This document shows, in pieces, positions 2,834 through 58,495 of a stretch of 64,000 nt of DNA. The DNA is from Dehalococcoidales bacterium (GTDB taxonomy: Bacteria; Chloroflexota; Dehalococcoidia; Dehalococcoidales; UBA5760), in contig JAQUQE010000003.1 in NCBI GenBank assembly GCA_028716225.1, positions 108,719-172,718 of the forward strand, written 5' to 3'. Both the position numbers and the translations under genes were made by a program. The notes under the pieces are model-generated. The model saw only the letters and a program-made list of their open reading frames with translations, was not told the DNA's origin and made no database searches. The first letter of the stretch is position 1, and each line of letters begins with the position of its first letter.

Positions 2834-4141
2834 ATGATGGAAAGGGATTGCGTCGGGGTTGGTATACTGGGGCTGGGGGTGATTGCCGGACAGGTTGCCC
2901 GTGTTCTGCGTGACAAGTCAGAAATCCTGGCCGGTCGGGTCGGTTGCCCGCTTGTCTTACGAAAGGTAAAGGTTCTGCCTGATGACTTGAGCCGGCCGCA
3001 GGTAAAGGAGATGGGGGCTCATCTCTTTACCACCGATGATGAAGAGTTTTTTACCTCACCCGGGATAGATATAGTTGTCGAAGCCATCGGGGGTGAGCAT
3101 CCGGCCCTGGAATATTTGACCCGGGCGCTTGGTGATGGTAAGCATGTTGTTACCTCCAACAAAGAAGTTATTGCCAAGCATGGGGCTGAGCTTCTGAAAC
3201 TGGCAGACCAGAATGGGGTGGTGCTGCGTTATGAAGCTAGTGTTGGTGGGGGTATCCCCCTGATTTCCCGTTTCCGGTATGATCTGGTGGCTAACCGGAT
3301 AGAAGGTATCTATGCGATTATCAACGGGACGACCAACTATATTCTGACTCGAATGGCTGGAGAGGGCGCGGACTTTTCTTCGGTTCTGGCCAGGGCTCAG
3401 GATTTGGGTTATGCCGAAGCTAATCCGGAGAATGATATAGAGGGGATAGACGCTGCCTATAAACTGGCTATTCTGACCTCGCTGGCGTTCCACACCGAGG
3501 TCAGACCGGAGGATATCTATCACGAAGGGATTTCACGATTATCCAGCCGTGATTTCCAGTATGCCCGGGAGCTTGGTTTCGCTATCAAGCTGCTGGCCAT
3601 TGCTAAAGAGAGTGATGGAGTGGTTGAGGTCCGGGTGCATCCGGTCTTTATACCGGAAGACTCTCTTCTGGCTAAGGTCAATGGTGTCTATAATGCCGTT
3701 CTGGTTGAGGGGGATCTGGTTGATAAAGTCCTCTTCTTCGGTCAAGGCGCGGGTCCACTGCCTACCTCCAGCGCTGTAATAGCTGATGTTGTCTCGGCGG
3801 CGCAGGATGTCCTGCGTGGTATTAGCGGCGGAGTCAGGTGGGAGTTGGGGCCCGGCAAGGTGATCAAACCCATGTCTGGCATTGAAACCAGCTACTATCT
3901 CCGTCTCAACATTGCCGATCGGCCTGGTATCCTGGCTCAGATTGCCAAGGCCCTGGGTGACCGTCAGATCAGTATTTCCTCTGCCATCCAGAAGCTGGCT
4001 GACCGGGTGGCTCAGACCGCTGAAATTGTTATCATTACCTATCCTGCCCTGGAAAAATCGATGCAGTCGGCGCTGGGAGAATTAGGCCAGCTATCCGGGG
4101 TAAAGGAAGTAAGCAACTTAGTTCGGGTGGAGGCTTTATAA
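2834..4141 (+). CDS. hom: homoserine dehydrogenase with C-terminal ACT domain
   Basis: VGVGILGLGVIAGQV Rossmann motif, NKEVIA, and an ACT-like tail (YYLRLNIADRPGILAQIAKALG). The ORF opens at TTG 2813, but a GGGGGG SD 7 nt before ATG 2834 favours 2834. Confidence 0.9.
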   Translation: MMERDCVGVGILGLGVIAGQVARVLRDKSEILAGRVGCPLVLRKVKVLPDDLSRPQVKEMGAHLFTTDDEEFFTSPGIDIVVEAIGGEHPALEYLTRALGDGKHVVTSNKEVIAKHGAELLKLADQNGVVLRYEASVGGGIPLISRFRYDLVANRIEGIYAIINGTTNYILTRMAGEGADFSSVLARAQDLGYAEANPENDIEGIDAAYKLAILTSLAFHTEVRPEDIYHEGISRLSSRDFQYARELGFAIKLLAIAKESDGVVEVRVHPVFIPEDSLLAKVNGVYNAVLVEGDLVDKVLFFGQGAGPLPTSSAVIADVVSAAQDVLRGISGGVRWELGPGKVIKPMSGIETSYYLRLNIADRPGILAQIAKALGDRQISISSAIQKLADRVAQTAEIVIITYPALEKSMQSALGELGQLSGVKEVSNLVRVEAL

Positions 4142-4151
4142 TAGAGTAGCA

Positions 4152-5204
4152 ATGAAAAACGGAGTGCTAGCCAGATATAGAGACTATCTACCGGTTACCC
4201 CTGATACGCCGCTTTTCTCGTTAGGCGAGGGAGATACCCCGCTGGTCAGGTGCCCGTCTCTTGAGAGAGAGACTGGCTGTGGGGAACTCTATTTTAAGCT
4301 GGAGGGGTGTCAGCCTACCGGTTCCTTTAAGGACCGGGGTATGGTTGTCGCGGTGGCCAAGGCGATGGAGGCCGGCAGCCGGGCCGTAATGTGCGCCTCT
4401 ACCGGTAACACCAGCGCCTCAGCGGCGGCCTATGCTGCCTATCTCGGGATTGAGGCTATTATTGTGGTACCCGAGGGTAAAATCACGATGGGTAAGCTGG
4501 CTCAGGCTGTCGTCTACGGAGCCAAGATAGTTGCTATTGAGGGAAATTTTGACCAGGCCCTGACTATCGTAAGGAGTCTGACCGACAGGCATCCGGTTAC
4601 CCTGGTGAACTCGGTTAATCCCAACCGTATCGAGGGCCAGAAAACGGCTGCCTTCGAGATTGTTGATAACCTGGGGGCTGCGCCGGACTACCTCTTTATC
4701 CCGGTGGGGAATGCCGGGAATATTACCGCCTACTGGAAAGGTTTTATGGAATACTTCGGGTTGGGTAAGGCGAAGGCTAAGCCCAGGATGATGGGTTTTC
4801 AGGCTGAAGGTGCTGCCCCTATTGTCCGGGGATATCCTGTTAAGGAGCCGCAGACCGTCGCTACCGCGATACGAATCGGTAATCCGGCGAGTTGGCAAAA
4901 GGCGGTGGCGGCTCGTGATGAGTCCGGGGGAACTATTGATATGGTCAGCGACGATGAAATCCTGGCGGCTTACCGGCTTATGGCGGCTAAAGGGGGTATA
5001 TTTGGTGAGCCGGCTTCGGCAGCTCCACTGGCCGGTCTAATCAAGCTCTCTCGTTGTGGGATGGACTTTTCGCAGAAGAGGGTGGTCTGTGTGGTGACCG
5101 GTAGCGGCCTTAAGGACCCTGATAATGCACTGAAAAGCGCAGAGCCCTTCCTTAAGCTGCCGGCTGACTTGGCTGCTGTGGAACGGGCTTTGGGTTGGGG
5201 CTAA
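4152..5204 (+). CDS. thrC: threonine synthase
   Basis: PLP lysine motif (QPTGSFKDRG), GNTSASAAAYAA, and a length of 350 aa. Lies directly downstream of hom. Confidence 0.92.
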   Translation: MKNGVLARYRDYLPVTPDTPLFSLGEGDTPLVRCPSLERETGCGELYFKLEGCQPTGSFKDRGMVVAVAKAMEAGSRAVMCASTGNTSASAAAYAAYLGIEAIIVVPEGKITMGKLAQAVVYGAKIVAIEGNFDQALTIVRSLTDRHPVTLVNSVNPNRIEGQKTAAFEIVDNLGAAPDYLFIPVGNAGNITAYWKGFMEYFGLGKAKAKPRMMGFQAEGAAPIVRGYPVKEPQTVATAIRIGNPASWQKAVAARDESGGTIDMVSDDEILAAYRLMAAKGGIFGEPASAAPLAGLIKLSRCGMDFSQKRVVCVVTGSGLKDPDNALKSAEPFLKLPADLAAVERALGWG

Positions 5205-13922: not shown

Positions 13923-14663
13923 CTACGTCCATTGGATTACTCGGCTTGACCAAGCTTCCTGGATCCCTTCCGCAAGCCCTGATTGCTTAGGTTCTCTAAT
14001 GTTAAGCGACCGATCTAAGGTCTTTGTATCAAACTCTCGGAGAAAGTGACATTGCTTCCGGAAATCCAGTATGGTTTTCCTAGTACCTCCATAAAGAACA
14101 TAATCCAATAGTCTGGCATAGGGATCTAACTGTCCCCTGGTATGCTGGCAGACCCGCGTAAAAAATGTTTCCATCTGCTTCTCGCGATGTCGCGCAAATC
14201 GTTGGGACGAAGAGCCCCCCTGACGGTGGCGGGAATGTACCAGGCCTGTGCCAACCTTGCTGGAAAGCAAGTTCTCACCCTGAAAAACGCCAATACCATA
14301 TGCCCCGAGCCTTACAATTACCATACCTAGAAGAAATTCATGATGCATAAGTAAATAAAGAGGTTTAATTTGACAGGTTTTGGAAACACTTTCTTCAGCC
14401 ACAGGGAATGGGGGCATGACCAGATACCGGTGATGTGGCCCCCAAAAAAGTATTCCCCCCGTCCGGGACTCCGCAATTAAGTTAGATAGGTCTTCAGGTA
14501 TTGTCTTCATATCCAGTATCGTTTCCATCATACCTTCTATACTTGCTTTTAAAGACTTTGGCCGAATGTATAAAGAACCGACCTCTATGGAGTTGGTCTT
14601 TAATTCCTCCAGTAAATGCAATAATTTTACCTTAGTTAAATTGTACCGTCTGATAGATGCCAT
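13923..14663 (-). CDS. acVLRF1 (Vms1/ANKZF1-like, eRF1-fold) peptidyl-tRNA hydrolase family protein
   Basis: 246 aa. The diagnostic loop HRQGGSSSQRFARHREKQ matches the GG(x)SQxRFxRxRE motif of the VLRF1 clade, which carries the catalytic Gln. The flanks look like an eRF1-type central domain (GIGVFQGENLLSSKV). Confidence 0.7.
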   Translation of the reverse strand: MASIRRYNLTKVKLLHLLEELKTNSIEVGSLYIRPKSLKASIEGMMETILDMKTIPEDLSNLIAESRTGGILFWGPHHRYLVMPPFPVAEESVSKTCQIKPLYLLMHHEFLLGMVIVRLGAYGIGVFQGENLLSSKVGTGLVHSRHRQGGSSSQRFARHREKQMETFFTRVCQHTRGQLDPYARLLDYVLYGGTRKTILDFRKQCHFLREFDTKTLDRSLNIREPKQSGLAEGIQEAWSSRVIQWT

Positions 14664-20958: not shown

Positions 20959-21035
20959 TGGTGGGCCATCCTGGGATCGAACCAGGGACCTCAGTCTTAT
21001 CAGGACTGCGCTCTAGCCTGCTGAGCTAATGGCCC
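20959..21035 (-). tRNA. tRNA-Ile (anticodon GAU), CCA encoded
   Basis: Folded by hand. Acceptor GGGCCAT/ATGGCCC, D stem GCTC/GAGC, anticodon stem CAGTC/GACTG with loop CTGATAA, T stem CCTGG/CCAGG with loop TTCGATC, discriminator A, then CCA. Total 77 nt. Confidence 0.95.
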
Positions 21036-21167
21036 GGGCCATTCTCGGTTCATATCCTGCTTTGAAAAAGAAACCTTAACCTCTGGATAGCGGAAGGAAA
21101 GCGACCTACTCTGACTAATCAGAGATCGACCTAGAAGATAACAGACTTAGCGCCTGTTTTCTCCCTA

Positions 21168-22670
<1,503 letters not shown>

Positions 22671-22738
22671 AAAAAATTGACATAGTTTGAACCTTCCTTC
22701 CGCTATCCAGTTGTTAAGGTGCTATACTGACGCTTAAA

Positions 22739-32123: not shown

Positions 32124-33461
32124 TTACGGCTTGCTGCTCTCCCAGCCTTTGGGCACGATTTCAATGACCAGGTAGAGGTCGTAGAGGCTGTTGTGGTCCA
32201 CCTTGATCTTGTAGTCGCCGTTGTATAGCACGTCGAAGCTAAAGTCATGGCGGGTTTTACTTACCCAGTGTCCCCGGAATGTATCCACCGACCTGCCTTC
32301 CGGGTTCAGGATCTCGAAGTTCCACCGGAAGGTACGGTCCCTGGTCTTGTACTCTCCGGTAAGCTCGACAAAGCCTGACACGATATCGCCCCGGTTCAGT
32401 ACATTGGAGAACGAGATGACGGAGCCCGAGATTGCTCCGGCGGGCATGGTATATTCTATCCTCTGTGCTATCGTATCGAAGTTGGCGGTTACGCTCTTGT
32501 CCGAGTCCATGGTGAGGTTAACCTCGGGATTGGTCCCAGAGACGTCGCCCGACCATCCGAGGAATTCATAGCCCGGGGATGGTGTTGCGACTAGGTCTAC
32601 CGGACTGCCGGGCGGGTAGACGCCGCCGCCGGTGCTTACCGTGCCGCCTTCAGTCGGACTGGCCGACACTTCCAGCGTGTAGCGGACGATGCTGAAGTTG
32701 GCGATTACGCTCCTGTCCGAGTCCATGGTAACGGTAACCCCGGGGCTGGTCCCGTAGACGTCGCCGGACCACCCGCGGAATTCATAGCCCGGGGAGGCTG
32801 TCGCGACCAGGTCTATCGTACTGCCCGGCTGATAGCTGCCGCTTTCGGTACTTATCGTGCCGCCCTCGGGCGGGTTGACCGAGGTCGATAAGGTGTACCT
32901 GATGGTATCGAAATTGGCGGTGATATCCTTATCGCCGTCCACGGTAATGGTGACTGTCGGGCTGGTCCCGGAGGCATCTCCGGACCATGAACCGAACTGA
33001 TAGCCTTCTGATGGTGTGGCTGTCAGTGTTACCGGGCTGCCGTCACGGTAGTTGCCTTGAAGCGGGCTGATGACGCCGCCGACGCTGGCGCTGACACTGC
33101 CGCCGTCAGCGGGGTTTGTTGCGATGCTGAGGCCGTGCATCGGCGGGGGCGGTTGATAGTAATGAATACCGAGCCATACCCCCAGCACGGTTCCGGCCAC
33201 GGCCGCGATGATGCCGATTCTCTGCCTCGGTGAAAACCGGTCCCCCCACACTATCCGGGGGATTCCCGGTCTTGCTCTTTCTTTGACGACCTCGGTGACT
33301 CGCTTCCACCATCCTGTCCACCTCTCCGTCCTGGTAACGTGCTTGACCCGTGTTAACCTGCTGCCCTGTTCTGACTTGCCGGTTTGCGTTGATTGGCTGG
33401 CCTGCGCTGATTTAGCGGGGGGGTTTCTCTTTCTGAATATCTTCTTGAAGAAATCGAGCAT
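32124..33461 (-). CDS. type II membrane protein with three InlB-B-repeat-like (Listeria-Bacteroides repeat) modules and an unassigned C-terminal beta domain
   Basis: Basic N-terminus and one TM helix (IGIIAAVAGTVLGVWLGI). Three modules follow with the pattern ..GG.VS....Y..GS.V.L.A.P..GY.F.GWSGD..GT.P...V.MD.D..V.ANF. A C-terminal domain of about 115 aa matches no motif I recognise. Confidence 0.7.
   Translation of the reverse strand: MLDFFKKIFRKRNPPAKSAQASQSTQTGKSEQGSRLTRVKHVTRTERWTGWWKRVTEVVKERARPGIPRIVWGDRFSPRQRIGIIAAVAGTVLGVWLGIHYYQPPPPMHGLSIATNPADGGSVSASVGGVISPLQGNYRDGSPVTLTATPSEGYQFGSWSGDASGTSPTVTITVDGDKDITANFDTIRYTLSTSVNPPEGGTISTESGSYQPGSTIDLVATASPGYEFRGWSGDVYGTSPGVTVTMDSDRSVIANFSIVRYTLEVSASPTEGGTVSTGGGVYPPGSPVDLVATPSPGYEFLGWSGDVSGTNPEVNLTMDSDKSVTANFDTIAQRIEYTMPAGAISGSVISFSNVLNRGDIVSGFVELTGEYKTRDRTFRWNFEILNPEGRSVDTFRGHWVSKTRHDFSFDVLYNGDYKIKVDHNSLYDLYLVIEIVPKGWESSKP
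32478..33137 (-). repeat. three tandem coding repeats of about 70-77 codons
   Basis: Protein residues about 109-185, 188-256 and 259-328 of the ORF are mutually similar (for example PGYEFRGWSGDVYGTSPGVTVTMDSDRSVIANF versus PGYEFLGWSGDVSGTNPEVNLTMDSDKSVTANF). Confidence 0.8.
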
Positions 33462-37632: not shown

Positions 37633-38262
37633 ATGATGAAAGCAAAGCGCGCTAAAATGGTATGGATTATTGCAGCCCTGTCTGTCTTCGGCATAGCCTG
37701 TTGCTACGGCTGTGCTGCCGAGAACAATGACCCGGTAGTAAGCGGCCTTTATGCTGATTCCAACATGCTTTCTCTGGGACATAGCTCGACGATAGCTGCG
37801 GTTGCCTCCGACCCGGATGGTGATGAGCTGCAGTATCAATGGTTCGTCTCCGATGGGGATATCCCCGGTGAGGGTTCCGAGATTACCTGGACCGCCCCGC
37901 TTATCCCCGGCGCTTATACTGTTACCGTTGTCGTGACGGACGGCAGGGGTGGCCAGTCGGCCATGACGATTACTCTGGGTGTCGCGCCCGGTAGAGATCC
38001 CGTCATTGTCAGCTTTGAGGCTGCCGACACCGGTTGTAAGAAAAGCACCCCGGTGGCAATAGACTGCCTTGCCTACGACCCGGACGGTGATGATCTGACC
38101 TACCGGTGGTCGGCAACCGGCGGTGAGATAACGGGAGAAGGCCCGTTTGTGTCTTGGGTTGCGCCCGAGGAGCTGGGTACCTATACCATCACCGTTTATG
38201 TCAGTGACGGTATAGGTGGCGAGGTGGAAGAGTCGCTGGAGATCGAAGTCAAGGGTGGCTGA
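37633..38262 (+). CDS. secreted protein or lipoprotein with two PKD/Ig-like modules
   Basis: Signal peptide. Two similar modules of about 85 aa (..ASDPDGDELQYQW....TWTAP..PGAYTVTVVVTDGRGG and ..AYDPDGDDLTYRW....SWVAPEELGTYTITVYVSDGIGG). Confidence 0.7.
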   Translation: MMKAKRAKMVWIIAALSVFGIACCYGCAAENNDPVVSGLYADSNMLSLGHSSTIAAVASDPDGDELQYQWFVSDGDIPGEGSEITWTAPLIPGAYTVTVVVTDGRGGQSAMTITLGVAPGRDPVIVSFEAADTGCKKSTPVAIDCLAYDPDGDDLTYRWSATGGEITGEGPFVSWVAPEELGTYTITVYVSDGIGGEVEESLEIEVKGG

Positions 38263-40047: not shown

Positions 40048-40096
40048 ATAGTCTCAAGATTAAGGCATTAGCTTGCATATATCAAATAAGTAGTTA

Positions 40097-40333
40097 AAAG
40101 GGGGAAGCTGTTGCACGATAGTCAGTTTAGTGCAATTAACAGAGCGTCGGTCTTCGGATTCCGAGTCAAACGCCCAACTTCATGAATTCCAGGATTGTCA
40201 GAGGTAGTTACAGAATTACCCCAATACGTAGGACCACATAAAATCACATCTAGTAACATGCGCGGGGAGCGTCAAATCGAGCGTTAAAAAAGGGAAAGTG
40301 TTAACAGAGTGCCTGTCCTTCGGTCTCGGACTC
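40097..40333 (+). repeat. two copies of a composite motif in the 365-bp region upstream of the giant envelope gene
   Basis: Copy 1 is AAAAGGGGGAAGCTGTT (40097-40112), then a 23-nt insert with the TTGCAC/GTGCAA palindrome, then TTAACAGAGCGTCGGTCTTCGGATTCCGAGTC (40136-40167). Copy 2 is AAAAAAGGGAAAGTGTT fused directly to TTAACAGAGTGCCTGTCCTTCGGTCTCGGACTC (40286-40333). Each B box contains a CTTCGG (UUCG-type) loop. Confidence 0.6.
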
Positions 40334-40336
40334 GTA

Positions 40337-40367
40337 TTGACACGTGGTGTATAATATCAGCTAGAAT
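40337..40367 (+). promoter_or_regulatory. candidate promoter of the giant envelope gene
   Basis: A perfect TTGACA (40337-40342) is followed by TATAAT (40350-40355, spacer only 7 nt) and TAGAAT (40362-40367, spacer 19 nt). Which -10 is used is ambiguous. Confidence 0.35.
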
Positions 40368-40412
40368 CCACGTTTTATGTTCATCTTTACATAGATAAAG
40401 ACTAGTGGAGGT

Positions 40413-43400
40413 ATGAATGTGTCTCAGTTGAGAAGATTTGCTGGTGTGCTTTTCGCAATAATACTGGTATCAGCGCTATTAGTAGGCGCGAGTCTCAGCG
40501 CTCTAGCTGACCAGGATAGTGATGGAGGTAGTTACGATGTTCTGATATTCAAGAATGGTTATTGGCAGCTACAGGGCAAACTCAGCTTCTCTGATTATGA
40601 GACTCGCCGATTGCCACTAGGTAACGGTGCCGGTCAACTCAGGGTCAGGCTAACTCAGCATGGGCATGATGGTGCTTTTGTGGACTACTTGGCGCTGGAA
40701 AAAGGTACAGCTATATTCGCTCCTAAATCAGCTATTAATATTGGCAGTAGCGCAAGTGTCTTGACCAAAGTAATGTCCCCTGAATATGACGTTTGTGATG
40801 CTTGGAATAGCACTTTGGAAGTGGTCTGGGAGAACGTCCCCGATAACGCAACACTAGTCATGCAAGCAATGGAAGAGGATTTCGGTAAAGGACATGGTGT
40901 ACCTCTGTATTATCCGCGCATTCAGCAAGGGGAAACCCTAAGCTATACACTTGTTGACAATGGTAGCATTTGTGTCGATGGTTGGCTGCAAGAGTCAACG
41001 GAACCGGACTTCACCGTATTCTGGCAACCGGACACTCCACATCCAGATGGCTATACCTACGGCTGGTTACATTCTGACGAACATTTCTTGTATGCTGCGG
41101 TTGAGGTTACCGCGGACAATACCCTTGATGAAGAAGATTGGGGGGCGCTCTATCTGACAGTGGACGGTGAGCTGAGAGAATTCCGCGTCACCGATGCTGA
41201 GGAACAATGGGGTGTGAGTGGATTTCAATACACCTCTTCGGTGGCCTACGAACATCGGGTATATGAATTTCAGATCCCTTTGAATGAAATACCTGCCGAT
41301 ATCGGTGCTCATATTCGATACGGCTTTGGGTGTTACGGTACTGTTGCTGTGATGTTGACGCCGACTAAGCACTCCTCCGCGTGTGGTATGGACTGGGGCA
41401 TCGTTAACACTCCCAGCTGGGAGGATATGATCATCCTGCCTGCCTCAGATATCCTCGACTACGATATCGGCGGTGATGGCGATACAATCTACGCCGTTCT
41501 TGAGATTAATGAGAATTGCGTTGGGGTCGGTGATCCCAATAATGATTTTGCCCTAGTCAAATCCACCGATGGAGGAGTCACCTGGAAGGATATAACAGAT
41601 AATGTCACCAGTGCCGCTAATCTACCAGTTGGCGATGTTTTTGTTTCTCTCACCGACGTGGCGGTAGCCCCGGATGATGAGAACTGGATTGCCCTGGCTG
41701 GCTATAGTAGTGATGGCACGAATCCCGTATGGGTTGTTGCCTCCAAGGACGGTGGTGATAACTTCAGCTACACTGGTGATATGACTGACAATACGTTACG
41801 AATGATTTATGCCTTCGATCTGGCGGTATCAATTGAAGTAAACGATATCCACAATATTGCTGTAGCTGGGATGGACAGCTCGGGGTACGGATCGATATAC
41901 CGCCTCAAGGCGGGTACTTGGCTCACAGGTGCCTGGGAAGACACATCAGATACTACTGATTATCTAGGCTGGGACAACGGTATGGGTACTGGCAATATAT
42001 CATTGCATGTTTTTGCCGTTGCATTCTCGCCGAACTTTGAAATTGACGATACTATCGTCTGCCTCGTTATTGGTGATGACGACAATTATCCATTTATCCA
42101 ATCGGGTATCTGGGAAAGTAGCGGCGGCTCGTGGAATGATGAAGCTGGCTTCCCCACCGCTACTGAAATCAAGTCAGACGGCGATGCATTACAAGTCGAC
42201 CCCTATTACCGAAGATGTCTTGGCCTGGCTCTGCCAGCTGATTACGATGGATCTGATCCCGGAGCCCGAACTGTTTTTTTATACGTTAATGCTCGCAACA
42301 TGACTAATCTTCTAATGGGAGGCTATGTCTTTCGCTCTGACAACAACTCCCTGAGTCCGGTATGTGGTCCGTCCGGTGAACCCCTACTCGCCAGCATTGA
42401 CGTTCATGGCGATGCCAACACTGGCAAGTTGATGATCGGAGAGTTCATCCAGTACGACAATGATGACGATGAGTATATCTTAGCTAACTGCTGCGAAGGT
42501 GTCAGGGTCTGGCACACTGAAGAGCTTGATTTCTGCTGTCCCCAGTGGGACGGCGCCTGTAAAGACCCCTCCGGCTTCTATATGGCATTGGTCATGTACA
42601 CCCCGGATGGTGATAAGGAATACACCACCACCAGCGGAACAATAGATGATTGGGCATACGTATCAGAAGGACGAGATGATACCGGCACTCCTCTTGACGA
42701 GTCCGCCTTCTCGGTAACCCTGGATGATGGCATTTCCTTCAATCAAATCGGCCTCATCGATACTGATATTAACTGGCTCTCCGACGTGGCCGTCTGCCCC
42801 GACTGCTCCGTCATCTACCTCTCCACTATTAACGAGGAGGTACGCAGCGGCGAATTTCCATGCATGGGCGGTGGCTACGCCTCCGGTTATTGTGGCTGCG
42901 ACAGCATCTGGCGCAGCTACGATGAAGGCGACACATGGGAGCGCGTTTTCCACGGTGACTGGATGGGAGATGAAGATTACGGTTGGCCCCTGCTCAGACT
43001 TCCGTGTGACACCGATGAGGATTGCTGCACCGTCTATCTCGGTTTAGCTGGCAAAGATCAGATGTTCTGCAGCCGGGACTGCGGCCAATGCTGGAATGAG
43101 CCGCCTGCTACCAAGATAAACATTTGGGACTTTGCCGTGGAAAGCGATAATATCGTCTACCTTATTAATGACGAAGGCGAATTCTCAATGTCCACCCAAT
43201 ACGGGCGCCGCTGGAGTGACCCAGTCGATACCGGAATCGATTCGGGACACACCATCGCCGCCTGCTGCAACGAGGACTTGATCGTCGTCGCCGGTTACGG
43301 TGACGAAGCGGTGGCCTATTCCAGCGATGGCGGCGACACGTGGGAGCAGACGGCAGACCTGCCCGGGTTGGGTACGGCCCACATCGCCTGTGACCCCCTC

Positions 43401-44801
43401 TGTGAAGGCACCATCTACGCCGCCCTGAGCGAGCCGGTTGGCATATGTGGCGGTATCTACCGATGGGTGATTGGCGACAGTACGGACTGGACCAACATGA
43501 ATGCTTTTAAGTATGGTTACTACGGTATCGCTGTCGGGAGAAGCGACGGTACTTTGTATGCAGTTACCGACACAATTTTTATAGATCCAGATGAAGAAAT
43601 ATGTGACCGATTCGTATCCCCTTACGATGAGGTGGATGGTGATTTTCATGGCTATGAGGTATATAGTGGAGTAGCACGCAACCTCGACCCCTGTGAGACT
43701 GCCTGTTGCGGCACTGAGGACTGGGACTACCTCATCTGCGGCTTGGGTACAGAGTGCGTAGGAAGCGAAAATCCTGGTTTTTCCTGTATCCCAACCGAAT
43801 GGTTTGATAATGAACCCAGTGGGCTCCGCATTTGCGGTTGCCTGAGCTTGGATACCAATAGCATTCTCTGGGCAATTGATGCGCAGCAGTATGATGTCAC
43901 TGACGGCTCCGGAGATAACGACCACTATGGCAGCCTCTGGAGCTACGAAGACTGCGCTGCCAAGCACGGCCCCACTCTCACCAGCCCGGCTGACGAAGCC
44001 ATTCTTGACTGCGAGCCATGTGCTGGTTGCGACGCCGCTAACTTCACCCTCGAGTGGGAGCGGATGTGCTGCTCATGCAGCTATGACATCGAAATCATGG
44101 ATGAGGACGACAACATTATCATCTCATGGGATGATGTCGAAATCACCGGCGACCCACCCGAACTGTTTATCGACGGCACTAAAGAATATACGGTTACAGA
44201 GGAGAATTTTAATTCTCATACCGTATCTAAGATCATGGATTACTACCTCGAGTGTGGCATGACCTACACCTGGCATGTCAGGGAAGCCGACACCGACTGT
44301 GAGTGCGTCCACAGCCCCTGGTCGGAGACATGGAGCTTCACCATCGAGGCCTCTTCGGCTAACGCGGTCAAACTAATCGCCCCTGATCAGGGTGCGGTAG
44401 TTGCCCAGCGCACCGGAGTCGGCTTCTCTTGGAGCAGTGTCTACGACGCCACCACCTACAGCTTCGTCATCTCCGCCAACCCCGACCTCTCCGGCGCCCT
44501 GGCTACTGCTGACGTCACCGGTACTGCCTATGCCCACTCGGGCACCCTGGACTACGAGACCACCTACTACTGGCAGGTAACCGCCTGGAAGGACGGCGCT
44601 ATGCTTTCCCAGAGCGATATCGGCACCTTCGCCGTCGCTGCTGAAGAGGTTATACCGCCCGAACTGGAACCGGCCGAGCCGGTAGTGATCGATATCCCGG
44701 CCACCCAGCAGATCACCCCGACCTGGATCTACGCCATGATCGGCATCGGCGCGGCACTGGTGGTAGTGGTCATTGTCCTGATTGTCCGAAGCAGGAGATA
44801 A
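40413..44801 (+). CDS. 1462-aa secreted, C-terminally anchored, Cys-rich Asp-box (BNR) beta-propeller protein; S-layer/envelope candidate
   Basis: Signal peptide (..GASLSALA/DQD). Asp-box-like motifs STDGGVTW, SKDGGDNF, SYDEGDTW, SRDCGQCW, STQYGRRW and SSDGGDTW. Two FN3/Ig-like C-terminal modules. C-terminal TM helix (IYAMIGIGAALVVVVIVLIV) with an RSRR tail. GGAGG SD; the start could be GTG 40419. Confidence 0.8.
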   Translation: MNVSQLRRFAGVLFAIILVSALLVGASLSALADQDSDGGSYDVLIFKNGYWQLQGKLSFSDYETRRLPLGNGAGQLRVRLTQHGHDGAFVDYLALEKGTAIFAPKSAINIGSSASVLTKVMSPEYDVCDAWNSTLEVVWENVPDNATLVMQAMEEDFGKGHGVPLYYPRIQQGETLSYTLVDNGSICVDGWLQESTEPDFTVFWQPDTPHPDGYTYGWLHSDEHFLYAAVEVTADNTLDEEDWGALYLTVDGELREFRVTDAEEQWGVSGFQYTSSVAYEHRVYEFQIPLNEIPADIGAHIRYGFGCYGTVAVMLTPTKHSSACGMDWGIVNTPSWEDMIILPASDILDYDIGGDGDTIYAVLEINENCVGVGDPNNDFALVKSTDGGVTWKDITDNVTSAANLPVGDVFVSLTDVAVAPDDENWIALAGYSSDGTNPVWVVASKDGGDNFSYTGDMTDNTLRMIYAFDLAVSIEVNDIHNIAVAGMDSSGYGSIYRLKAGTWLTGAWEDTSDTTDYLGWDNGMGTGNISLHVFAVAFSPNFEIDDTIVCLVIGDDDNYPFIQSGIWESSGGSWNDEAGFPTATEIKSDGDALQVDPYYRRCLGLALPADYDGSDPGARTVFLYVNARNMTNLLMGGYVFRSDNNSLSPVCGPSGEPLLASIDVHGDANTGKLMIGEFIQYDNDDDEYILANCCEGVRVWHTEELDFCCPQWDGACKDPSGFYMALVMYTPDGDKEYTTTSGTIDDWAYVSEGRDDTGTPLDESAFSVTLDDGISFNQIGLIDTDINWLSDVAVCPDCSVIYLSTINEEVRSGEFPCMGGGYASGYCGCDSIWRSYDEGDTWERVFHGDWMGDEDYGWPLLRLPCDTDEDCCTVYLGLAGKDQMFCSRDCGQCWNEPPATKINIWDFAVESDNIVYLINDEGEFSMSTQYGRRWSDPVDTGIDSGHTIAACCNEDLIVVAGYGDEAVAYSSDGGDTWEQTADLPGLGTAHIACDPLCEGTIYAALSEPVGICGGIYRWVIGDSTDWTNMNAFKYGYYGIAVGRSDGTLYAVTDTIFIDPDEEICDRFVSPYDEVDGDFHGYEVYSGVARNLDPCETACCGTEDWDYLICGLGTECVGSENPGFSCIPTEWFDNEPSGLRICGCLSLDTNSILWAIDAQQYDVTDGSGDNDHYGSLWSYEDCAAKHGPTLTSPADEAILDCEPCAGCDAANFTLEWERMCCSCSYDIEIMDEDDNIIISWDDVEITGDPPELFIDGTKEYTVTEENFNSHTVSKIMDYYLECGMTYTWHVREADTDCECVHSPWSETWSFTIEASSANAVKLIAPDQGAVVAQRTGVGFSWSSVYDATTYSFVISANPDLSGALATADVTGTAYAHSGTLDYETTYYWQVTAWKDGAMLSQSDIGTFAVAAEEVIPPELEPAEPVVIDIPATQQITPTWIYAMIGIGAALVVVVIVLIVRSRR

Positions 44802-44835: not shown

Positions 44836-44870
44836 AAAGAGCCCCCCGAATTTCGGGGGGCTCTTTCTTT
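44836..44870 (+). terminator. strong intrinsic terminator
   Basis: AAAGAGCCCCCCGAA/TTCGGGGGGCTCTTT, a perfect GC-rich hairpin followed by TCTTT. Lies 35 nt after the giant gene's stop. Confidence 0.85.
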
Positions 44871-45069
44871 ACGATAGTGAACTACGAAGTTGGATGTTAT
44901 AAAACATTCAGCCAGTTTGTCGAACACCATAGATGACTTGTGTGGTTCTTGCTCTTCTTGATTCCTGTCCGCTTGTCTGCGCTTGCTTCTTTGGCCTCTT
45001 ACGTGTCTCATTAAATAGACTCTAAGATGGCTTTAGAGATATACTGTTACCAGGGCAGGAGGGGCTGTA

Positions 45070-46236
45070 ATGAAGAAGACCCTTTGCGTAATAGCAAGTG
45101 TTGTTATAATTGGTCTACTATCCGGAAGTTGCGCTCTGTTCTTCCCCACCGAATCGACAATCACTCCGAGCCCTTCGCCTGAACCAGAACCGTCTCCGGT
45201 TGTCAACATACCACCGGTTGCCTATATAGATTCGATATTACCTGCCGACTCTCTGGCAGGTGAGGTAATTTCGTTTGACGGCCACGGTACCGATATAGAT
45301 GGTACAGTAGTTGCCTATCGCTGGCGGTCCAGTATTGATGGGGAACTGAGCAGCAAGGCTTCATTCGAAACCTCCGGGCTATCGGGAGGTGTACATATTA
45401 TCTATCTTAAGGTTCAGGACAACAACGGTGCCTGGTCGGAAGAAGTACATTCCAATGTGGTTATAGGTGCGGCAGAGTCAGGCCCTACCGGTCAGATTAC
45501 CGATGCCAGCATTTCCTGGGGTACTTCCCCGGACCGGATCATCTTTACCTGGACGGTATCAGGTCTAGATCCCGGTTTCGAATACTGGGTATACCCCCAC
45601 GTAGGTTTTACTGAGAACGGTGGCCCTTTCGGCAGCACTCCGGAAGACGAAGCTAGCAATCTGGAAGGTATGTATGAAATGGCCATAACCCACTTTCGCC
45701 CGGCGGCCGACGGGACTGGTTCCTGGAACTGGTATGGGGGTAAACCAACCAATCCCTCTGGTCAACTCGCCCTGCTAGCCTATGATCCCGCAATCCAAAG
45801 CGCTTGCGTCGTGGATATCTCGGAGCAAGTCAACGTCTCGTCTTGGGAAGTAGAGCCCACCGGTGATATTACCGATGCCAAAATACTGTGGGGTACTTTC
45901 CCGGCCCGGATAATTTTCACCTGGACAGTCTCAGGTCTAGATCCCGGTTTCGAATACTGGGTATACCCCCACGTAGGTTTTACCGAGAACGGCGGTCCTT
46001 TCGGCAGCACTCCGGAAGACGAAGCTAGCAACCTGGAAGGTATGTATGATATGGCCATAACTCGCTTTCGCCCGGCAGCCGATGACACTGGTTCCTGGAA
46101 CTGGTATGGTGACAAGCCGACAAATCCCAGCGGTCAACTTGCACTCCTTGCCTATGATCCCACAACCCAAAGTGCTTATGTAGTGGCTATCTCGGAGGAA
46201 ATTAATACCTCATCTTGGCATGGTTCAGTTGACTAG
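45070..46236 (+). CDS. lipoprotein: PKD-like domain followed by two copies of an unassigned 124-aa domain
   Basis: Lipobox (IGLLSGS-C) and an AGGAGGGG SD. A PKD-like segment (FDGHGTDIDGTVVAYRW...IIYLKVQDNNGAWS), then a duplicated domain (..IIFTWTVSGLDPGFEYWVYPHVGFTENGGPFGSTPEDEASNLEGMY..). Confidence 0.75.
   Translation: MKKTLCVIASVVIIGLLSGSCALFFPTESTITPSPSPEPEPSPVVNIPPVAYIDSILPADSLAGEVISFDGHGTDIDGTVVAYRWRSSIDGELSSKASFETSGLSGGVHIIYLKVQDNNGAWSEEVHSNVVIGAAESGPTGQITDASISWGTSPDRIIFTWTVSGLDPGFEYWVYPHVGFTENGGPFGSTPEDEASNLEGMYEMAITHFRPAADGTGSWNWYGGKPTNPSGQLALLAYDPAIQSACVVDISEQVNVSSWEVEPTGDITDAKILWGTFPARIIFTWTVSGLDPGFEYWVYPHVGFTENGGPFGSTPEDEASNLEGMYDMAITRFRPAADDTGSWNWYGDKPTNPSGQLALLAYDPTTQSAYVVAISEEINTSSWHGSVD
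45484..46227 (+). repeat. in-frame tandem duplication, 2 x 372 bp
   Basis: Copy 1 is 45484-45855 and copy 2 is 45856-46227. They share long identical runs, for example TCAGGTCTAGATCCCGGTTTCGAATACTGGGTATACCCCCACGTAGGTTTTA in both copies. Confidence 0.9.
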
Positions 46237-55015: not shown

Positions 55016-58000
55016 TCAGCCCACCCTGCCCAGTAACTCCTCCAGTACCTTCTGCCACCGACCCCCCACTAGTTTAGTGTTCAGTCTGATCTGGGTCAGC
55101 CCTATCTTTATGCCGTCCCCGGCCAGTGGAGCGAGCCTCTGTTTGTCGAAGTGCATGCCGGGGAAGAGCCTCAGGATGATCTGGCCGTGTTCGCCGGTGA
55201 CGGATTCGACGCCCACCCTGGCTGCCAGTATCTTGATCCTGACCGCATAGAGCAGGTTTGCGACTTCCTCGGGCGGCCTGCCGAAGCGGTCGCTGCACTC
55301 ATAGGCCATGTCCTCCAGTTCTTCTAAAGATTTGATATCCGCCAGCCGCTGGTAGAGGCTCAGCCTGGTATTCAGGTCGGCGATGTACCCTTCCGGAATA
55401 TAGGTGTCCAGGGGCAGGTCTATATTCGGCGGGGGCAGTGACGGCGCCGGCGGCTTATCGGCAGCGCCGGACCGTTTGTCCTTCTCCCTCTCCACCGCTT
55501 CCGCCAGCAGGCGGCAGTAGAGGTTGAAGCCGACGGCGCTGATCTGCCCGCTCTGTTTTACCCCCAGGAGGTTTCCGGCGCCCCTGATCTCGAGGTCTTT
55601 GATGGCGATGTTAAAACCGGCGCCCAGCTCGGTGGCCTCGAAGATGGTCCTCAGGCGCCTCTCGGCGGTGTGGGTCAGCTGCTTGCCCCGGTCGTAGAGA
55701 AAGTAGGCGTAGGCGAGGTTGGTACCCCGGCCGATCCGGCCGCGCAGCTGATAAAGCTGGGTCAGGCCGAACCTGTCCGCTTTGTTGACAATCAGAGTGT
55801 TGACGTTGGGCATATCCAGCCCGGATTCGATGATGGTGGTACAGACCAGTATGTCTATCTTGCTCCGGGCAAAATCGGTCATCACCGCCTCCAGTTCGGT
55901 CTCGGACATCTGGCCGTGAGCGATGGCGATGCGGGCTTCGGGCACCAGTTGCTCGAGGCGTCCGGCGACCATGGCGATACTCTGTACCCGGTTGTGGACG
56001 AAGAATACCTGTCCGTTGCGCTCCAGTTCCCTCAGTACGGCCTCCCTGATCAGGCTGTCGTCGTATTCGGCAACGAAGGTCTTGATGGGCAGGCGGTCTT
56101 CGGGTGGGGTCTCGATAGTGCTCATATCTCGTACTCCGACCAGGGACATATGGAGGGTACGTGGGATGGGAGTGGCGCTCAGGGTAAGCACGTCCACTTC
56201 CCGCCGCATCTGCTTGAGGTATTCCTTATGGTTAACGCCGAAGCGTTGCTCTTCGTCGATAATGACCAGCCCCAGGTCTCGGAAGGCAATGTCCTTCTGC
56301 AGCAGCCGGTGGGTGCCGATGCAGATGTCCACGTTGCCTTTAGCCAGCCCGTCGATGATGGCATTCTGTTCCTTCTGATTCTTGAACCGGCTCAGCACCT
56401 CAGTTCTGATTGGAAAAGCGCCTAGCCTCTGGCTGAATGTCGAGAAGTGCTGCTGGGCGAGTACGGTGGTCGGCACCAGCACCGCCACCTGTTTATTGTC
56501 CATCACCGCCTTGAAGGCGGCCCGGATAGCTATCTCGGTTTTGCCGTAGCCCACATCGCCGCAGACCAGTCTGTCCATGGGCCTGGGCTGCGCCATATCA
56601 TCCTTTACCTGCTGCTGGACTTTGCTCTGGTCCGGAGTCTCGAGGTAGGGAAATGAAGCCTCCAGCTCCTGCTGCCATACCGTATCGGGTGAAAAGGAGA
56701 ATCCGTCCACGACACCGCGGGCGGCGTAGAGCGTGAGCAGTTCCTCGGCGATTTCTTCCGCCGCCGCCCGGGCCTTCTGCTTGGTGCGGTTCCATTCCGG
56801 AGTGCCCAGCCGGCTTGGCACCGGCGGCTGTTCGCTGGCGCCGATGTAGCGGCTGACGCGGTAGATCTGGTCGGTGGGGACGTAGAGCCTGTCGCCGCCG
56901 GCATACTGCAGCACCAGGTACTCCTTCTCGGTGTTGGCGCTCTCCATGGTGGTGACGCCGCTGAACCGGGCGATGCCGTGCTCGATATGTACCACGTAGT
57001 CTCCCGGGCTCAGGTCGTTTAGGAGTAGCTGGTGGGAGGTCGGACGTTTCCTGGTGAGGCGCCGCTCTTTACTGAAGCCGAAGATTTCGTAATCGGTAAA
57101 GAGGTGGCTGGCTCCGTTCATGGTCCAGCCCTCGGCCAGCAGGCCCTGGATCAGGCTGAGCGAGCCCGGAGCAGGCGCCTCTTTGATTTCAGCGAGGGGG
57201 GGAGCGATAATATCCGCTTCGCCTAGTATCTCGGAGAGGCGGCTTGCCTGGTGGCTGACGATGATGAGGCGGTGTCCCTGTTTCTGGAGGTGTTTCGCCT
57301 TCCTGATAAAGGTCGGCAGCTGGCCCGCGTAGCTTGGGGTGGAGGTGAAGTTCAGCCGCAGCGTTTCTTCGGTGGATGACTTGTCCCAGGCGGTAATTGC
57401 GAGACACTGCTCTTTAGCGATTGCCGCTTCCAGTTCATGCCAGGTGAAATATGGCCTGGGGAAACCGGCGGGCAGCTCGCCTCGCTCCAGCTTCTCGGTA
57501 CGCAGCTCCTCGGCTTTGGCTTCCAGGTCTGCGGCGGCTGAAGCCATGCTGCGCGGTTCGTTCAATACTATCAGCGTGTTTCGGGGCAGATAGCTCAGGA
57601 TACTGTCGCTGTTGAACAGCGGGGCGTAGAACAGCATCCTGGCGGATACCTCTCCCTCGAGCAGTATAGCCATCTCCTGTTCAAGCTGCCGGCGCACCCC
57701 GTCGTTGCAGCCGGCCGGGTTGATGCTGGCTAAGACTTGCCTGAGCTCCTCTTTGCTGATTGATAGCGGTGCCAGCAGCTCGGTTGCCGGGGTGACGGCT
57801 ACTTCGGATACCTTCGTCATTGAACGCTGGCTGACCGGGTCGAAGAGGCGGATGCTGTCGATGTTATCACCGTAGAAGTCCAGTCTGGCCGGCAGGTCGC
57901 CGGAGGGCGGGTAGATGTCGATGATGCCTCCGCGCCGGCTGACGGTCCCGGGGACCTCCACCGTGCTTTCTATCCGGTAGCCCATCGCCTGCCAGCGCTT

Positions 58001-58495
58001 CAGCAGGCTGAGCGGTTCGACATTGTCGCCTACCCTGATTGTGTGATGCGTAGAGCTAAAATCGCGGTACGGGGCTACCTTCTGCATCAGTGCCGGGGTA
58101 GAGGTGATCGTCAGGGGAGCATTCCGCTTGCCCCCGGCACCGGCCAGTGCGGAGAGTATCTGCAGTCTCTCCATCTCGGTTACAGTGTCGGAAGTTATCC
58201 GCTGGTAGGGGAGGGTATCTGGTTCGGGGAAGAGCCTTAGCCGGGTGGAGCCGGTCCAGGCTGCCAGCTGCTCGGAAAGCTTTTTGCTTTCCTGGGGCTG
58301 AGCCGTCACTACCAGCAGAGGTCTTTTCAGGTCGTGGTATAACGATGCAATCAGGTACGGTCGGGCGGCGTCGAGCACTACCACTCTGGTACTGCCGCCC
58401 GGCTTACCCAGCCTGTCGATAAGCTGGCGATAGGCCGGCATCTCGGCGCTTAATTGTAATAGCCCGGTTATTTCCGGCTGCATTTTTCTACTCAA
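55016..58495 (-). CDS. mfd: transcription-repair coupling factor
   Basis: 1159 aa. UvrB-homology N-terminus, a CarD/RID region (GDYVVHIEHGIA), SF2 translocase motifs (CGDVGYGKTE, DEEQRFG, TATPIPRT, RGRIGRG) and a TRG-like region. Confidence 0.95.
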   Translation of the reverse strand: MSRKMQPEITGLLQLSAEMPAYRQLIDRLGKPGGSTRVVVLDAARPYLIASLYHDLKRPLLVVTAQPQESKKLSEQLAAWTGSTRLRLFPEPDTLPYQRITSDTVTEMERLQILSALAGAGGKRNAPLTITSTPALMQKVAPYRDFSSTHHTIRVGDNVEPLSLLKRWQAMGYRIESTVEVPGTVSRRGGIIDIYPPSGDLPARLDFYGDNIDSIRLFDPVSQRSMTKVSEVAVTPATELLAPLSISKEELRQVLASINPAGCNDGVRRQLEQEMAILLEGEVSARMLFYAPLFNSDSILSYLPRNTLIVLNEPRSMASAAADLEAKAEELRTEKLERGELPAGFPRPYFTWHELEAAIAKEQCLAITAWDKSSTEETLRLNFTSTPSYAGQLPTFIRKAKHLQKQGHRLIIVSHQASRLSEILGEADIIAPPLAEIKEAPAPGSLSLIQGLLAEGWTMNGASHLFTDYEIFGFSKERRLTRKRPTSHQLLLNDLSPGDYVVHIEHGIARFSGVTTMESANTEKEYLVLQYAGGDRLYVPTDQIYRVSRYIGASEQPPVPSRLGTPEWNRTKQKARAAAEEIAEELLTLYAARGVVDGFSFSPDTVWQQELEASFPYLETPDQSKVQQQVKDDMAQPRPMDRLVCGDVGYGKTEIAIRAAFKAVMDNKQVAVLVPTTVLAQQHFSTFSQRLGAFPIRTEVLSRFKNQKEQNAIIDGLAKGNVDICIGTHRLLQKDIAFRDLGLVIIDEEQRFGVNHKEYLKQMRREVDVLTLSATPIPRTLHMSLVGVRDMSTIETPPEDRLPIKTFVAEYDDSLIREAVLRELERNGQVFFVHNRVQSIAMVAGRLEQLVPEARIAIAHGQMSETELEAVMTDFARSKIDILVCTTIIESGLDMPNVNTLIVNKADRFGLTQLYQLRGRIGRGTNLAYAYFLYDRGKQLTHTAERRLRTIFEATELGAGFNIAIKDLEIRGAGNLLGVKQSGQISAVGFNLYCRLLAEAVEREKDKRSGAADKPPAPSLPPPNIDLPLDTYIPEGYIADLNTRLSLYQRLADIKSLEELEDMAYECSDRFGRPPEEVANLLYAVRIKILAARVGVESVTGEHGQIILRLFPGMHFDKQRLAPLAGDGIKIGLTQIRLNTKLVGGRWQKVLEELLGRVG

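Follow-up and report, generated by a model that had tools for sequence, protein, structure and literature searches.

In Dehalococcoides mccartyi, DET1407 has been described as a putative surface-layer (S-layer) protein (PMC6646388 supplement; PMC5102406), where it ranks sixth by abundance in the strain-195 proteome table (PMC6646388 supplement), and a beta-propeller lattice domain has been reported for the S-layer protein of this species (bioRxiv 10.1101/2024.05.28.596244). Here, we describe a relative of DET1407 encoded by a 1462-amino-acid open reading frame (ORF) at 40413..44801 (+) of a 64,000-nucleotide stretch of DNA, referred to as the window, from a Dehalococcoidales bacterium (assembly GCA_028716225.1, contig JAQUQE010000003.1, positions 108,719 to 172,718 of the forward strand). 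Profile alignment places the ORF in the DET1407 family, and we give a probability of about 0.6 to the reading that its product is a Sec-exported, type I membrane-anchored surface protein of this BNR/Asp-box double-propeller, S-layer-type family, with the roles set out below. New with respect to DET1407 are an undescribed tip domain, a paired enrichment of cysteines and a recombination mosaic, the kind of protein itself being already known.

Archaeal-type S-layer glycoproteins carry a C-terminal transmembrane helix or a processed C-terminal signal (PGF-CTERM in Haloferax volcanii). The window protein resembles them in its large acidic ectodomain, its stalk and linker, its C-terminal hydrophobic segment followed by a basic tail, and the presumed lack of a rigid wall in its host cell; it differs in that the lattice fold is Ig-like there and made of propellers here, and that no PGF, PEP or LPXTG motif is present. 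The S-layer proteins of the hyperthermophilic methanogens Methanothermus and Methanocaldococcus have a raised cysteine content compared with mesophilic relatives, which is interpreted as covalent stabilisation. These are surface-layer proteins of strict anaerobes, as the window protein may also be, but their folds and lineages are unrelated to it. Its cysteine content, 6.5% over 600 residues, is also raised much further, and the cysteines can be separated into pairs that co-vary.

A query of concatenated peptides for DET1407 gave no match in the protein database. A DET1407-type sequence was recovered by back-translating the published peptide YFGNQWNQ and scanning metagenome contigs, which yielded locus L081. 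All three S-layer peptides published for strain 195 in PMC6646388 (YFGNQWNQTALCK, AGIIPAPTTASDAYK and VAYGTTTGTETTATTLK) occur in its 1001-residue protein. Using hhalign, the core profile A1, the first row of which is ORF residues 291-1462, was aligned end to end with the L081 protein, the alignment spanning 925 columns at a probability of 99.9% (E 2.9e-35). BLASTP of residues 1338-1462, which span the linker and transmembrane tail as well as the last FN3 domain, against L081 residues 875-999 gave 32% identity (E 2e-15). The C-termini are alike (VIVLIVRSRR in the ORF, VIVLIVRTRRVV in the DET1407-like protein), as are the signal peptides (KISKVLGV in the core family, KISKILGV in L081). Because of the end-to-end alignment and the tail shared with the peptide-bearing protein, the ORF is assigned to the DET1407 family.

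The two proteins have a collinear core of signal peptide, two Asp-box propellers, two FN3/Ig-like domains, linker, transmembrane helix and R(T/S)RR tail. Both are acidic, with a computed isoelectric point of 4.05 for the window protein (mature mass ~157 kDa) and 4.15 for the DET1407-like protein, and both genes stand alone. Overall identity is ~25-27%; the DET1407-like protein is devoid of the N-terminal tip domain, its first FN3 domain is without cysteines, and its ectodomain contains 5 cysteines compared with 44 in the window protein. With 1462 versus 1001 residues, the suggestion of the initial annotation, made from the letters of the window alone, that the ORF is a much larger, Cys-rich relative of DET1407 was thus borne out. 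A family member of 1053 residues titled Dehalococcoides mccartyi isolate BE2012_46_32 (L035) proved distant from the cultured strains and was rejected as the DET1407 ortholog, its relatives being at most 53% identical and none of those listed bearing the D. mccartyi name. It lacks the published peptides, and the species label of this metagenome-assembled genome (MAG) looks doubtful.

Script counts were identical to those of the initial annotation, revealing 48 cysteines in the ORF, six CC pairs (ANCC 693, DFCC 708, EDCC 871, AACC 951, TACC 1098 and RMCC 1219) and six Asp-box-like motifs (residues 384, 444, 835, 887, 927 and 970). The reported concentration of cysteines at ~690-1290 was also evident, with 40 of the 48 lying within residues 693-1298, where they make up 6.5% of residues versus 1.08% in the remaining window proteins. 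Six Asp-box matches compare with 0.08 expected and a maximum of 3 in 5000 shuffles of the sequence, and six CC pairs with 1.5 expected, a count reached in 6 of the 5000 shuffles. Since shuffled sequences rarely or never attain the observed counts, these motifs are not due to chance.

An AlphaFold2 (AF2) model was calculated for residues 291-1462 with 36 homologs (predicted local distance difference test score, pLDDT, 82.6; predicted template modelling score, pTM, 0.79). Together with the sequence it gave the following features of the gene, domain boundaries being approximate:

40407..40421 (+): ribosome-binding site GGAGG (40407-40411) with candidate start codons ATG 40413 and GTG 40419, from spacing
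40413..40508 (+): predicted signal peptide, residues 1-32 (MNVSQLRRFAGVLFAIILVSALLVGASLSALA / DQD), read from the sequence; AF2 helix at residues 3-26
40509..41351 (+): mobile N-terminal domain, residues ~33-313, from 60-69% identity to the N-termini of parallel beta-helix and other surface proteins and from AF2
41352..41387 (+): junction, residues 314-325 (AVMLTPTKHSSA), before the ancestral mature start MDWGIVNTPSW, from core-only homologs
41388..42662 (+): predicted beta-propeller 1, residues ~326-750, with Asp-boxes 384 and 444, from AF2 strands and Foldseek
42663..43967 (+): predicted beta-propeller 2, residues ~751-1185, with Asp-boxes 835, 887 (SRDCGQCW), 927 and 970; the main Cys-rich region, from AF2 and Foldseek
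43968..44312 (+): predicted Ig/FN3-like domain 1, residues ~1186-1300, Cys-rich; AF2 sandwich at ~1189-1293 (strands 899-1003 in core numbering)
44313..44642 (+): predicted FN3-like domain 2, residues ~1301-1410, without cysteines, lineage-specific stalk class; AF2 sandwich at ~1307-1408
44643..44720 (+): Pro/Glu-rich linker, residues ~1411-1436, predicted to be disordered (pLDDT below 50; low confidence at 1412-1436)
44721..44801 (+): predicted C-terminal transmembrane helix and basic tail (IYAMIGIGAALVVVVIVLIVRSRR), then stop; AF2 helix at 1437-1461, then RSRR

The GGAGG lies 1 nt from ATG 40413 and 7 nt from GTG 40419, and the orthologs P0003 and P0004 are called from the valine equivalent to GTG 40419; because of this spacing and the valine start, GTG 40419 appears the likelier start codon. 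The signal peptide noted previously, which ends before DQD, looks to be of the Sec type. A twin-arginine translocation (Tat) signal was considered and rejected: RRF is found here, but KRF, RSF, RKL and KKL in orthologs and other proteins with the N-terminal domain.

In the AF2 model, the propeller region (~326-1185) comprises about 55 strands, which we read from the strand list as ~14 blades and hence as two beta-propellers, where one or two had been proposed from the Asp-boxes. The two FN3/Ig-like modules, the Pro/Glu linker, the single transmembrane helix and the RSRR tail that had been recognised by eye are all found in the model. The last part of propeller 1 contains CC 693/694, CC 708/709 and C716, and Ig/FN3-like domain 1 contains CEPCAGC 1200-1206, CCSC 1219-1222, C1281 and CEC 1296-1298.

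The linker ends in a motif conserved in the family (IP.xQxITPTW), and the segment of transmembrane helix and tail is nearly invariant across the family, where two tail classes, RSRR(S/P)S and RTRRP, occur. A tripartite C-terminus (ITPTW, transmembrane helix, RSRR) is present by its motifs, and known C-terminal sorting signals (LPXTG, PEP-, PGF-, IPTL-, GlyGly- and GG_III-CTERM) were compared with it and rejected, only GG_III-CTERM giving a hit, which stays under its cut-off (14.9 versus 22 bits). No sortase-like gene was found in the 64-kb window. Among proteins sharing the N-terminal domain, P0082-P0116 end in recurrent motif-transmembrane-basic tails, VGG(E/A)AYPVxK...RRRR and P(A/V)LTP(I/L/V)G...R(R/K)KKR, or, in some, in dockerin-like repeats; because at least two further tail types are thus represented, several C-terminal sorting classes are suggested for these bacteria.

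A search of 5.8 billion proteins revealed four full-length relatives (P0001-P0004, 64-67% identity). About 80 proteins of 1150-1350 amino acids, from Dehalococcoidales or Chloroflexota MAGs, match only residues ~291/326-1462; these core-only homologs have their own signal peptide, directly followed by MEWGxVNTPSW. A further ~35 proteins match only residues 3-313 at 55-69% identity and are of parallel beta-helix, FG-GAP or DUF11/SdrD type. Because some relatives match the core only and others the N-terminal domain only, the ORF is, judged from these alignments, a fusion in which a mobile N-terminal domain was placed behind the signal peptide and ahead of MEWGxVNTPSW, the ancestral start of the mature protein. 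In a scan of one genome per GTDB species, 311 loci encode relatives of the core, and among the 80 loci listed nearly all are titled Dehalococcoidia, Dehalococcoidales or Chloroflexota. Single MAGs (PHI12_, STD1_192, UBA5760) contain 3-6 paralogs. Three family members (L011, L037 and L048) come from short contigs that were assigned to bins of Pirellulales, Rhodobacteraceae and a Thermoplasmata archaeon; since their tails are typical of Dehalococcoidia, these are probably binning errors and not transfers.

For the N-terminal domain, an exhaustive phmmer search of 1.84 billion representatives gave 653 protein clusters at E<=1e-3, of which 120 remained at E<=1e-30. It is usually located directly after the signal peptide and sometimes internally in proteins of 6000-7900 amino acids. 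No Pfam family covers the domain, either in the window protein or in ten distant members, which add FN3, Big_2 or IPTL-CTERM modules. NCBIfam gave no match to the domain, a 26-sequence profile gave none among PDB sequences, and Foldseek with the domain model gave no significant fold match. The initial annotation had described this region as having no recognised motif; this held for Pfam, NCBIfam, PDB and fold searches, while the 653 clusters mean that the domain is not unique. In the AF2 model of the domain only residues 40-155 are confident, forming a beta-sandwich, and the second half is unreliable (pLDDT below 50); two beta-sandwich halves appear to be present. Invariant in alignment A3 are GHP 210-211, D222, DNT 235-237 and H281, and YGT 308-310 is at least 90% conserved. 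The domain is 81-88% identical to that of P0001-4, compared with ~64-67% for the rest of the protein. From its distribution it is considered an undescribed mobile module, fused to unrelated surface proteins and probably forming a tip that they have in common, with a role in binding or contact.

Nearest relatives change along the gene. Up to about residue 1295 they are the group of P0001, P0002, P0006 and P0010. From about residue 1310, identity is 86-96% to P0071, L005, P0026, P0061, P0065 and P0068 from the PHI12 and STD1_192 MAGs, which are only 50-58% identical overall, and only 36-53% to the P0001 group. In nucleotide sequence, identity to L005 is 85.6% over gene positions 3835-4387, compared with 65-74% or no alignment elsewhere. 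A recombination breakpoint is thus located at about residues 1295-1310, and a second switch of nearest relative occurs at residues 991-1090. The G+C content at third codon positions (GC3) varies as follows:

Residues 1-650: GC3 0.42-0.55
Residues 650-1050: GC3 0.61-0.71
Residues 1000-1150: GC3 0.47-0.50
Residues 1300-1462: GC3 0.78-0.80, equal to the downstream housekeeping genes

By these shifts in identity the gene is a recombination mosaic, in which the stalk and anchor look lineage-specific and the ectodomain segments look exchanged. In some distant genomes, small lipoprotein-like ORFs just downstream of family genes (L039 6233-7201, L049 6286-7383) consist of two FN3-like domains, a Pro-rich linker and a TPxW-transmembrane-R.RR tail; that the stalk is a separable module is supported by these ORFs.

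The mosaic bears on an alternative that we regard as unlikely, in which the window protein is one of several variable paralogous surface proteins, an adhesin or receptor, inserted in or beside a coat made by another paralog. Its tip domain would bind particles, partners or substrates, and recombination would diversify it under phage or grazer pressure. The 3-6 paralogs in single MAGs, the patchwork gene with its conserved stalk class, the occurrence of the N-terminal domain on unrelated beta-helix, FG-GAP and Big_2 proteins, and the lack of synteny between orthologs are all consistent with this. However, the search gave no more than four full-length relatives that carry the N-terminal domain, and the alternative overlaps largely with the favoured reading of an S-layer-type coat protein, from which it differs only in whether the window copy forms a lattice.

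The cysteine pattern was analysed across 273 aligned family members. Their ectodomains contain from 4 to 57 cysteines, with a median of 40 in relatives of more than 50% identity, and about 30 cysteine positions are conserved in the close clade; cysteines 1200, 1203, 1206 and 1281 are present in 173-180 of the 273 members. A high cysteine content is, from this alignment, a clade trait. Co-occurrence of individual positions in the 273 sequences was as follows:

Cysteines 716 and 893: both in 103, only one in 0
Cysteines 694 and 829: both in 108, only one in 1
Cysteines 798 and 1141: both in 117, only one in 3
Cysteines 865 and 952: both in 84, only one in 0
Cysteines 1203 and 1206: both in 177, only one in 1
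Cysteines 1109 and 1296: both in 53, only one in 8

Within the Cys-rich clade, 1109 and 1296 are always lost jointly; 693 and 827 are often lost jointly with 694 and 829 being kept; 865, 951, 952 and 993 are lost jointly; and in one sequence 1200 and 1281 are lost and 1203 and 1206 kept. Cys 1109 lies in propeller 2 and its co-occurring Cys 1296 in Ig domain 1, so these partners belong to different domains, and a span across the two propellers is probable for 693/694 with 827/829 and for 716 with 893. Gains and losses thus seem to involve two distant cysteines at a time, which speaks for staples of the disulfide type rather than for Cys4 metal centres, because half of a four-Cys group is kept when the other half is lost. 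The cross-linking proposed in the initial annotation fits this pairwise gain and loss across the family; we put the chance that the pairs are covalent staples at about even.

The same cysteines could be seen as a metal or cofactor module (Zn, Fe or Ni thiolate, or Fe-S) for redox chemistry, metal sequestration or detoxification, an idea that we consider improbable. It would account for the dense CC, CxC, CxxC and CxxCxxC motifs and for the co-occurring four-Cys sets 693/694/827/829, 865/951/952/993, 798/1141/1143/1219 and 1200/1203/1206/1281; cysteine totals without an even-number bias and the presumably reducing habitats of the organisms also agree with it. The loss of 693/827 or of 1200/1281 with retention of 694/829 or 1203/1206, respectively, would however destroy a four-ligand site. 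Moreover, the twin arginine of the signal peptide is not conserved, and therefore export of a pre-folded, cofactor-loaded protein is unlikely, and the cysteines lie inside a propeller and Ig scaffold that is confidently predicted.

Structural and profile matches were inspected with regard to an enzymatic function. With the core model, Foldseek found as best PDB match the tandem propeller 6p2l of glycoside hydrolase family 74 (GH74) at E 6.8e-16, followed by SorLA Vps10p and LRP or Sevenless propellers, and matched no solved S-layer protein. Phmmer with the whole protein gave no match among PDB sequences. The family profile weakly matched GH74 chains (6p2m, 9.5e-9 in total; best single stretch 0.0013) and sialidases (6.9e-5) via Asp-box stretches. 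Pfam and NCBIfam hits were all below threshold, namely BNR, BNR_2, Sortilin-Vps10, Ig_Rha78A_N (residues 1360-1407) and F510_1955 (residues 833-1004; 45 bits versus a cut-off of 175). Two known families were rejected: sialidase (GH33, BNR_2), at 15.8 versus 31.4 bits and with a single six-bladed propeller where the model has two, and Sortilin/Vps10 (PF15902; ten-bladed propeller with 10CC module), at 16.8 versus 33 bits, SorLA being only a general propeller match. The GH74 xyloglucanases (PDB 6p2l, 6p2m, 4lgn) share with the window protein a tandem beta-propeller with Asp-box hairpins and are the best PDB matches by structure and profile; their propellers are seven-bladed, with which the ~14 blades read from the strand list agree. 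They differ by an identity of 14%, by matches that are confined to the repeat motifs with no family model passing its threshold, and by the membrane anchor, FN3 stalk and putative cysteine staples of the window protein.

A membrane-tethered glycoside hydrolase or glycan-binding protein of GH74- or sialidase-like type, acting on surface polysaccharide in place of a coat role, is distinctly improbable: the 6p2l and profile matches, the hit to the glycosylhydrolase model F510_1955 and the automatic naming of some relatives as sialidase or exo-alpha-sialidase speak for it, but the TM-scores are low and identity to 6p2l is 14%, the F510_1955, BNR_2 and Sortilin-Vps10 scores are far under their curated cut-offs, the Asp-box stretches behind the sequence matches are structural motifs, and the homolog in D. 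mccartyi ranks in abundance with the top proteins of the cell, which is atypical for a hydrolase. Nor is D. mccartyi known to use polysaccharides.

In the favoured reading, a surface protein of the DET1407 family, the C-terminal transmembrane helix and cytoplasmic RSRR tail would hold the protein in the membrane, and the Pro/Glu linker with the two Ig/FN3-like stalk domains would lift a canopy of tandem beta-propellers, at the distal end of which the extra ~280-residue domain would sit. In cells without peptidoglycan, such proteins would form a proteinaceous outer coat, and it is such a surface lattice that we infer here. The ~30 conserved cysteines of propeller 2 and Ig domain 1 would be joined covalently two by two, most likely as disulfides; some of these staples would link distant segments or domains and stiffen the ectodomain. 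The N-terminal domain would be a tip module common to many surface proteins, probably for binding or contact, and recombination would assemble the gene, with a lineage-specific stalk and anchor carrying an exchangeable ectodomain. A narrower proposal, which we hold to be doubtful, concerns one Dehalococcoidales clade that is presumed to be wall-less: here some 15 links of the disulfide type would have been added in pairs and step by step, and recombination would have swapped ectodomain cassettes and the tip domain onto a lineage-specific FN3-transmembrane stalk; several links would probably bridge both propellers and the first stalk domain, substituting for wall rigidity.

Several points weigh against the coat-protein reading. 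With 3-6 paralogs in related MAGs, the window copy may not be the main coat protein, and the S-layer role of DET1407 itself is only "putative" in the literature (PMC6646388; PMC5102406). In principle, the mosaic may have arisen during assembly, as a chimera of paralogs or strains; the overall architecture is no artefact, because P0001-P0004 share it. As to the staples, cysteine totals show no even-number bias (46 even and 41 odd in the Cys-rich clade; 124/271 overall), cysteines 369, 550 and 651 are lost singly in that clade, and no Dsb, VKOR or similar thiol-oxidation gene was found in the 64-kb window. Disulfides would also be unexpected in an anoxic, reducing habitat.

The gene is flanked by the following elements:

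40335..40367 (+): promoter-like block TATTGACACGTGGTGTATAATATCAGCTAGAAT, with TTGACA 40337-42, TG-TATAAT 40348-55 and TAGAAT 40362-67
44836..44872 (+): intrinsic terminator, a 14-bp GC-rich stem (44836-44866) followed by UUUCUUU; -27.8 kcal/mol, z = -6.24

The gene upstream is a divergent TM1586-type nitroreductase, separated by an intergenic region of 365 nt, and the window neighbours are housekeeping genes (RNase PH, Smr, glpX, pfk, fba, proAB, mfd, rib operon, mutL, uvrD and pyr genes). Because of the divergent upstream gene, the strong terminator and these neighbours, the gene stands alone. The promoter-like block is nearly identical upstream of P0001, the 67%-identical ortholog in L091, the neighbours of which differ (DegV, EamA, KatG and Fur); no synteny with this closest full-length homolog was found. 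A consensus promoter scan did not list the block, and the spacing of its hexamers is atypical. The monocistronic arrangement, the own promoter and the very strong terminator proposed from the letters agree with the divergent neighbour, the block conserved at L091 and the computed stem. The only remaining long ORF, 55016-58495, was checked as a paralog within the window and rejected, being Mfd/TRCF.

The 5' intergenic region contains two families of direct repeats, 40082-40152 and 40272-40317 (31 nt at 71% and 17 nt at 82%; spaced 165-190 nt), of which the second copy adjoins the promoter-like block and is conserved in part in L091; these could be binding sites of a regulator or a duplicated upstream element. 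The core-only paralogs L001-L005 have a different conserved leader of ~200 nt upstream, which is absent from the window gene. Its consensus in alignment A4 is GGAGGTGGTGCC.TAGAGA.AGCC.GGAGGGA ... TTATCTCCATAG ... TTTATGTGGAGA ... AAGGTCGATGAAAA; the leader is a candidate cis-regulatory RNA of S-layer-type genes. Rfam gave no match in the 5' intergenic region of the gene or to the L001-L005 leader, and neither the leaders of relatives nor that of the DET1407-like gene showed a riboswitch; riboswitch-like elements are mentioned upstream of the D. mccartyi S-layer gene (PMC5102406).

Other putative surface proteins are encoded nearby. Small lipoprotein-like proteins with PKD or Big_9 domains lie on both sides of the gene, at 37633-38262 (+) and 45070-46236 (+), the latter with a near-perfect internal duplication of ~115 amino acids (ITDA.I.WGT.P.RIIFTWTVSGLDPGFEYWVYPHVGFTENGG...). 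Three Flg_new_2 (divergent InlB B-repeat) domains occur in a 445-residue protein at 32124-33461 (-), likely a surface protein as well; an Flg_new_2 protein is also found near the ortholog in L091. At 20959-22671 (-), tRNA-Ile(GAT) (20959-21035) comes after a complete 16S rRNA gene (21169-22671), with no tRNA-Ala or 23S beyond it. Because the next gene downstream is not 23S but a protein-coding FAD oxidoreductase on the opposite strand, the rRNA genes appear to be unlinked. The region 13923-14663 (-) encodes an acVLRF1-type (Actinobacteria/Chloroflexi Vms1-like) release-factor homolog (PF18859 match, 8e-24).

Sediments, aquifers and bioremediation cultures are rich in Dehalococcoidia, and to our knowledge the protein coat on which their envelope rests has never been structurally characterised. 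A large metagenomic family, with 311 loci among GTDB species genomes, is now tied by direct test to the S-layer candidate of D. mccartyi, and a confident domain model is gained, predicting a two-propeller canopy, an FN3 stalk and a transmembrane anchor. A widespread surface tip domain without a Pfam or PDB relative (653 clusters) is brought to attention, as is the exchange of ectodomains on a conserved stalk as a testable feature. The build-up of paired cysteines in one clade, likewise a testable feature, is relevant to the question of whether disulfides are made outside the cytoplasm in these bacteria. Should the proposal of a coat stapled by some 15 links be true, it would imply an unrecognised extracytoplasmic route of thiol oxidation in organisms thought to be anaerobic, and the swapping of ectodomain and tip would resemble surface variation against phages.

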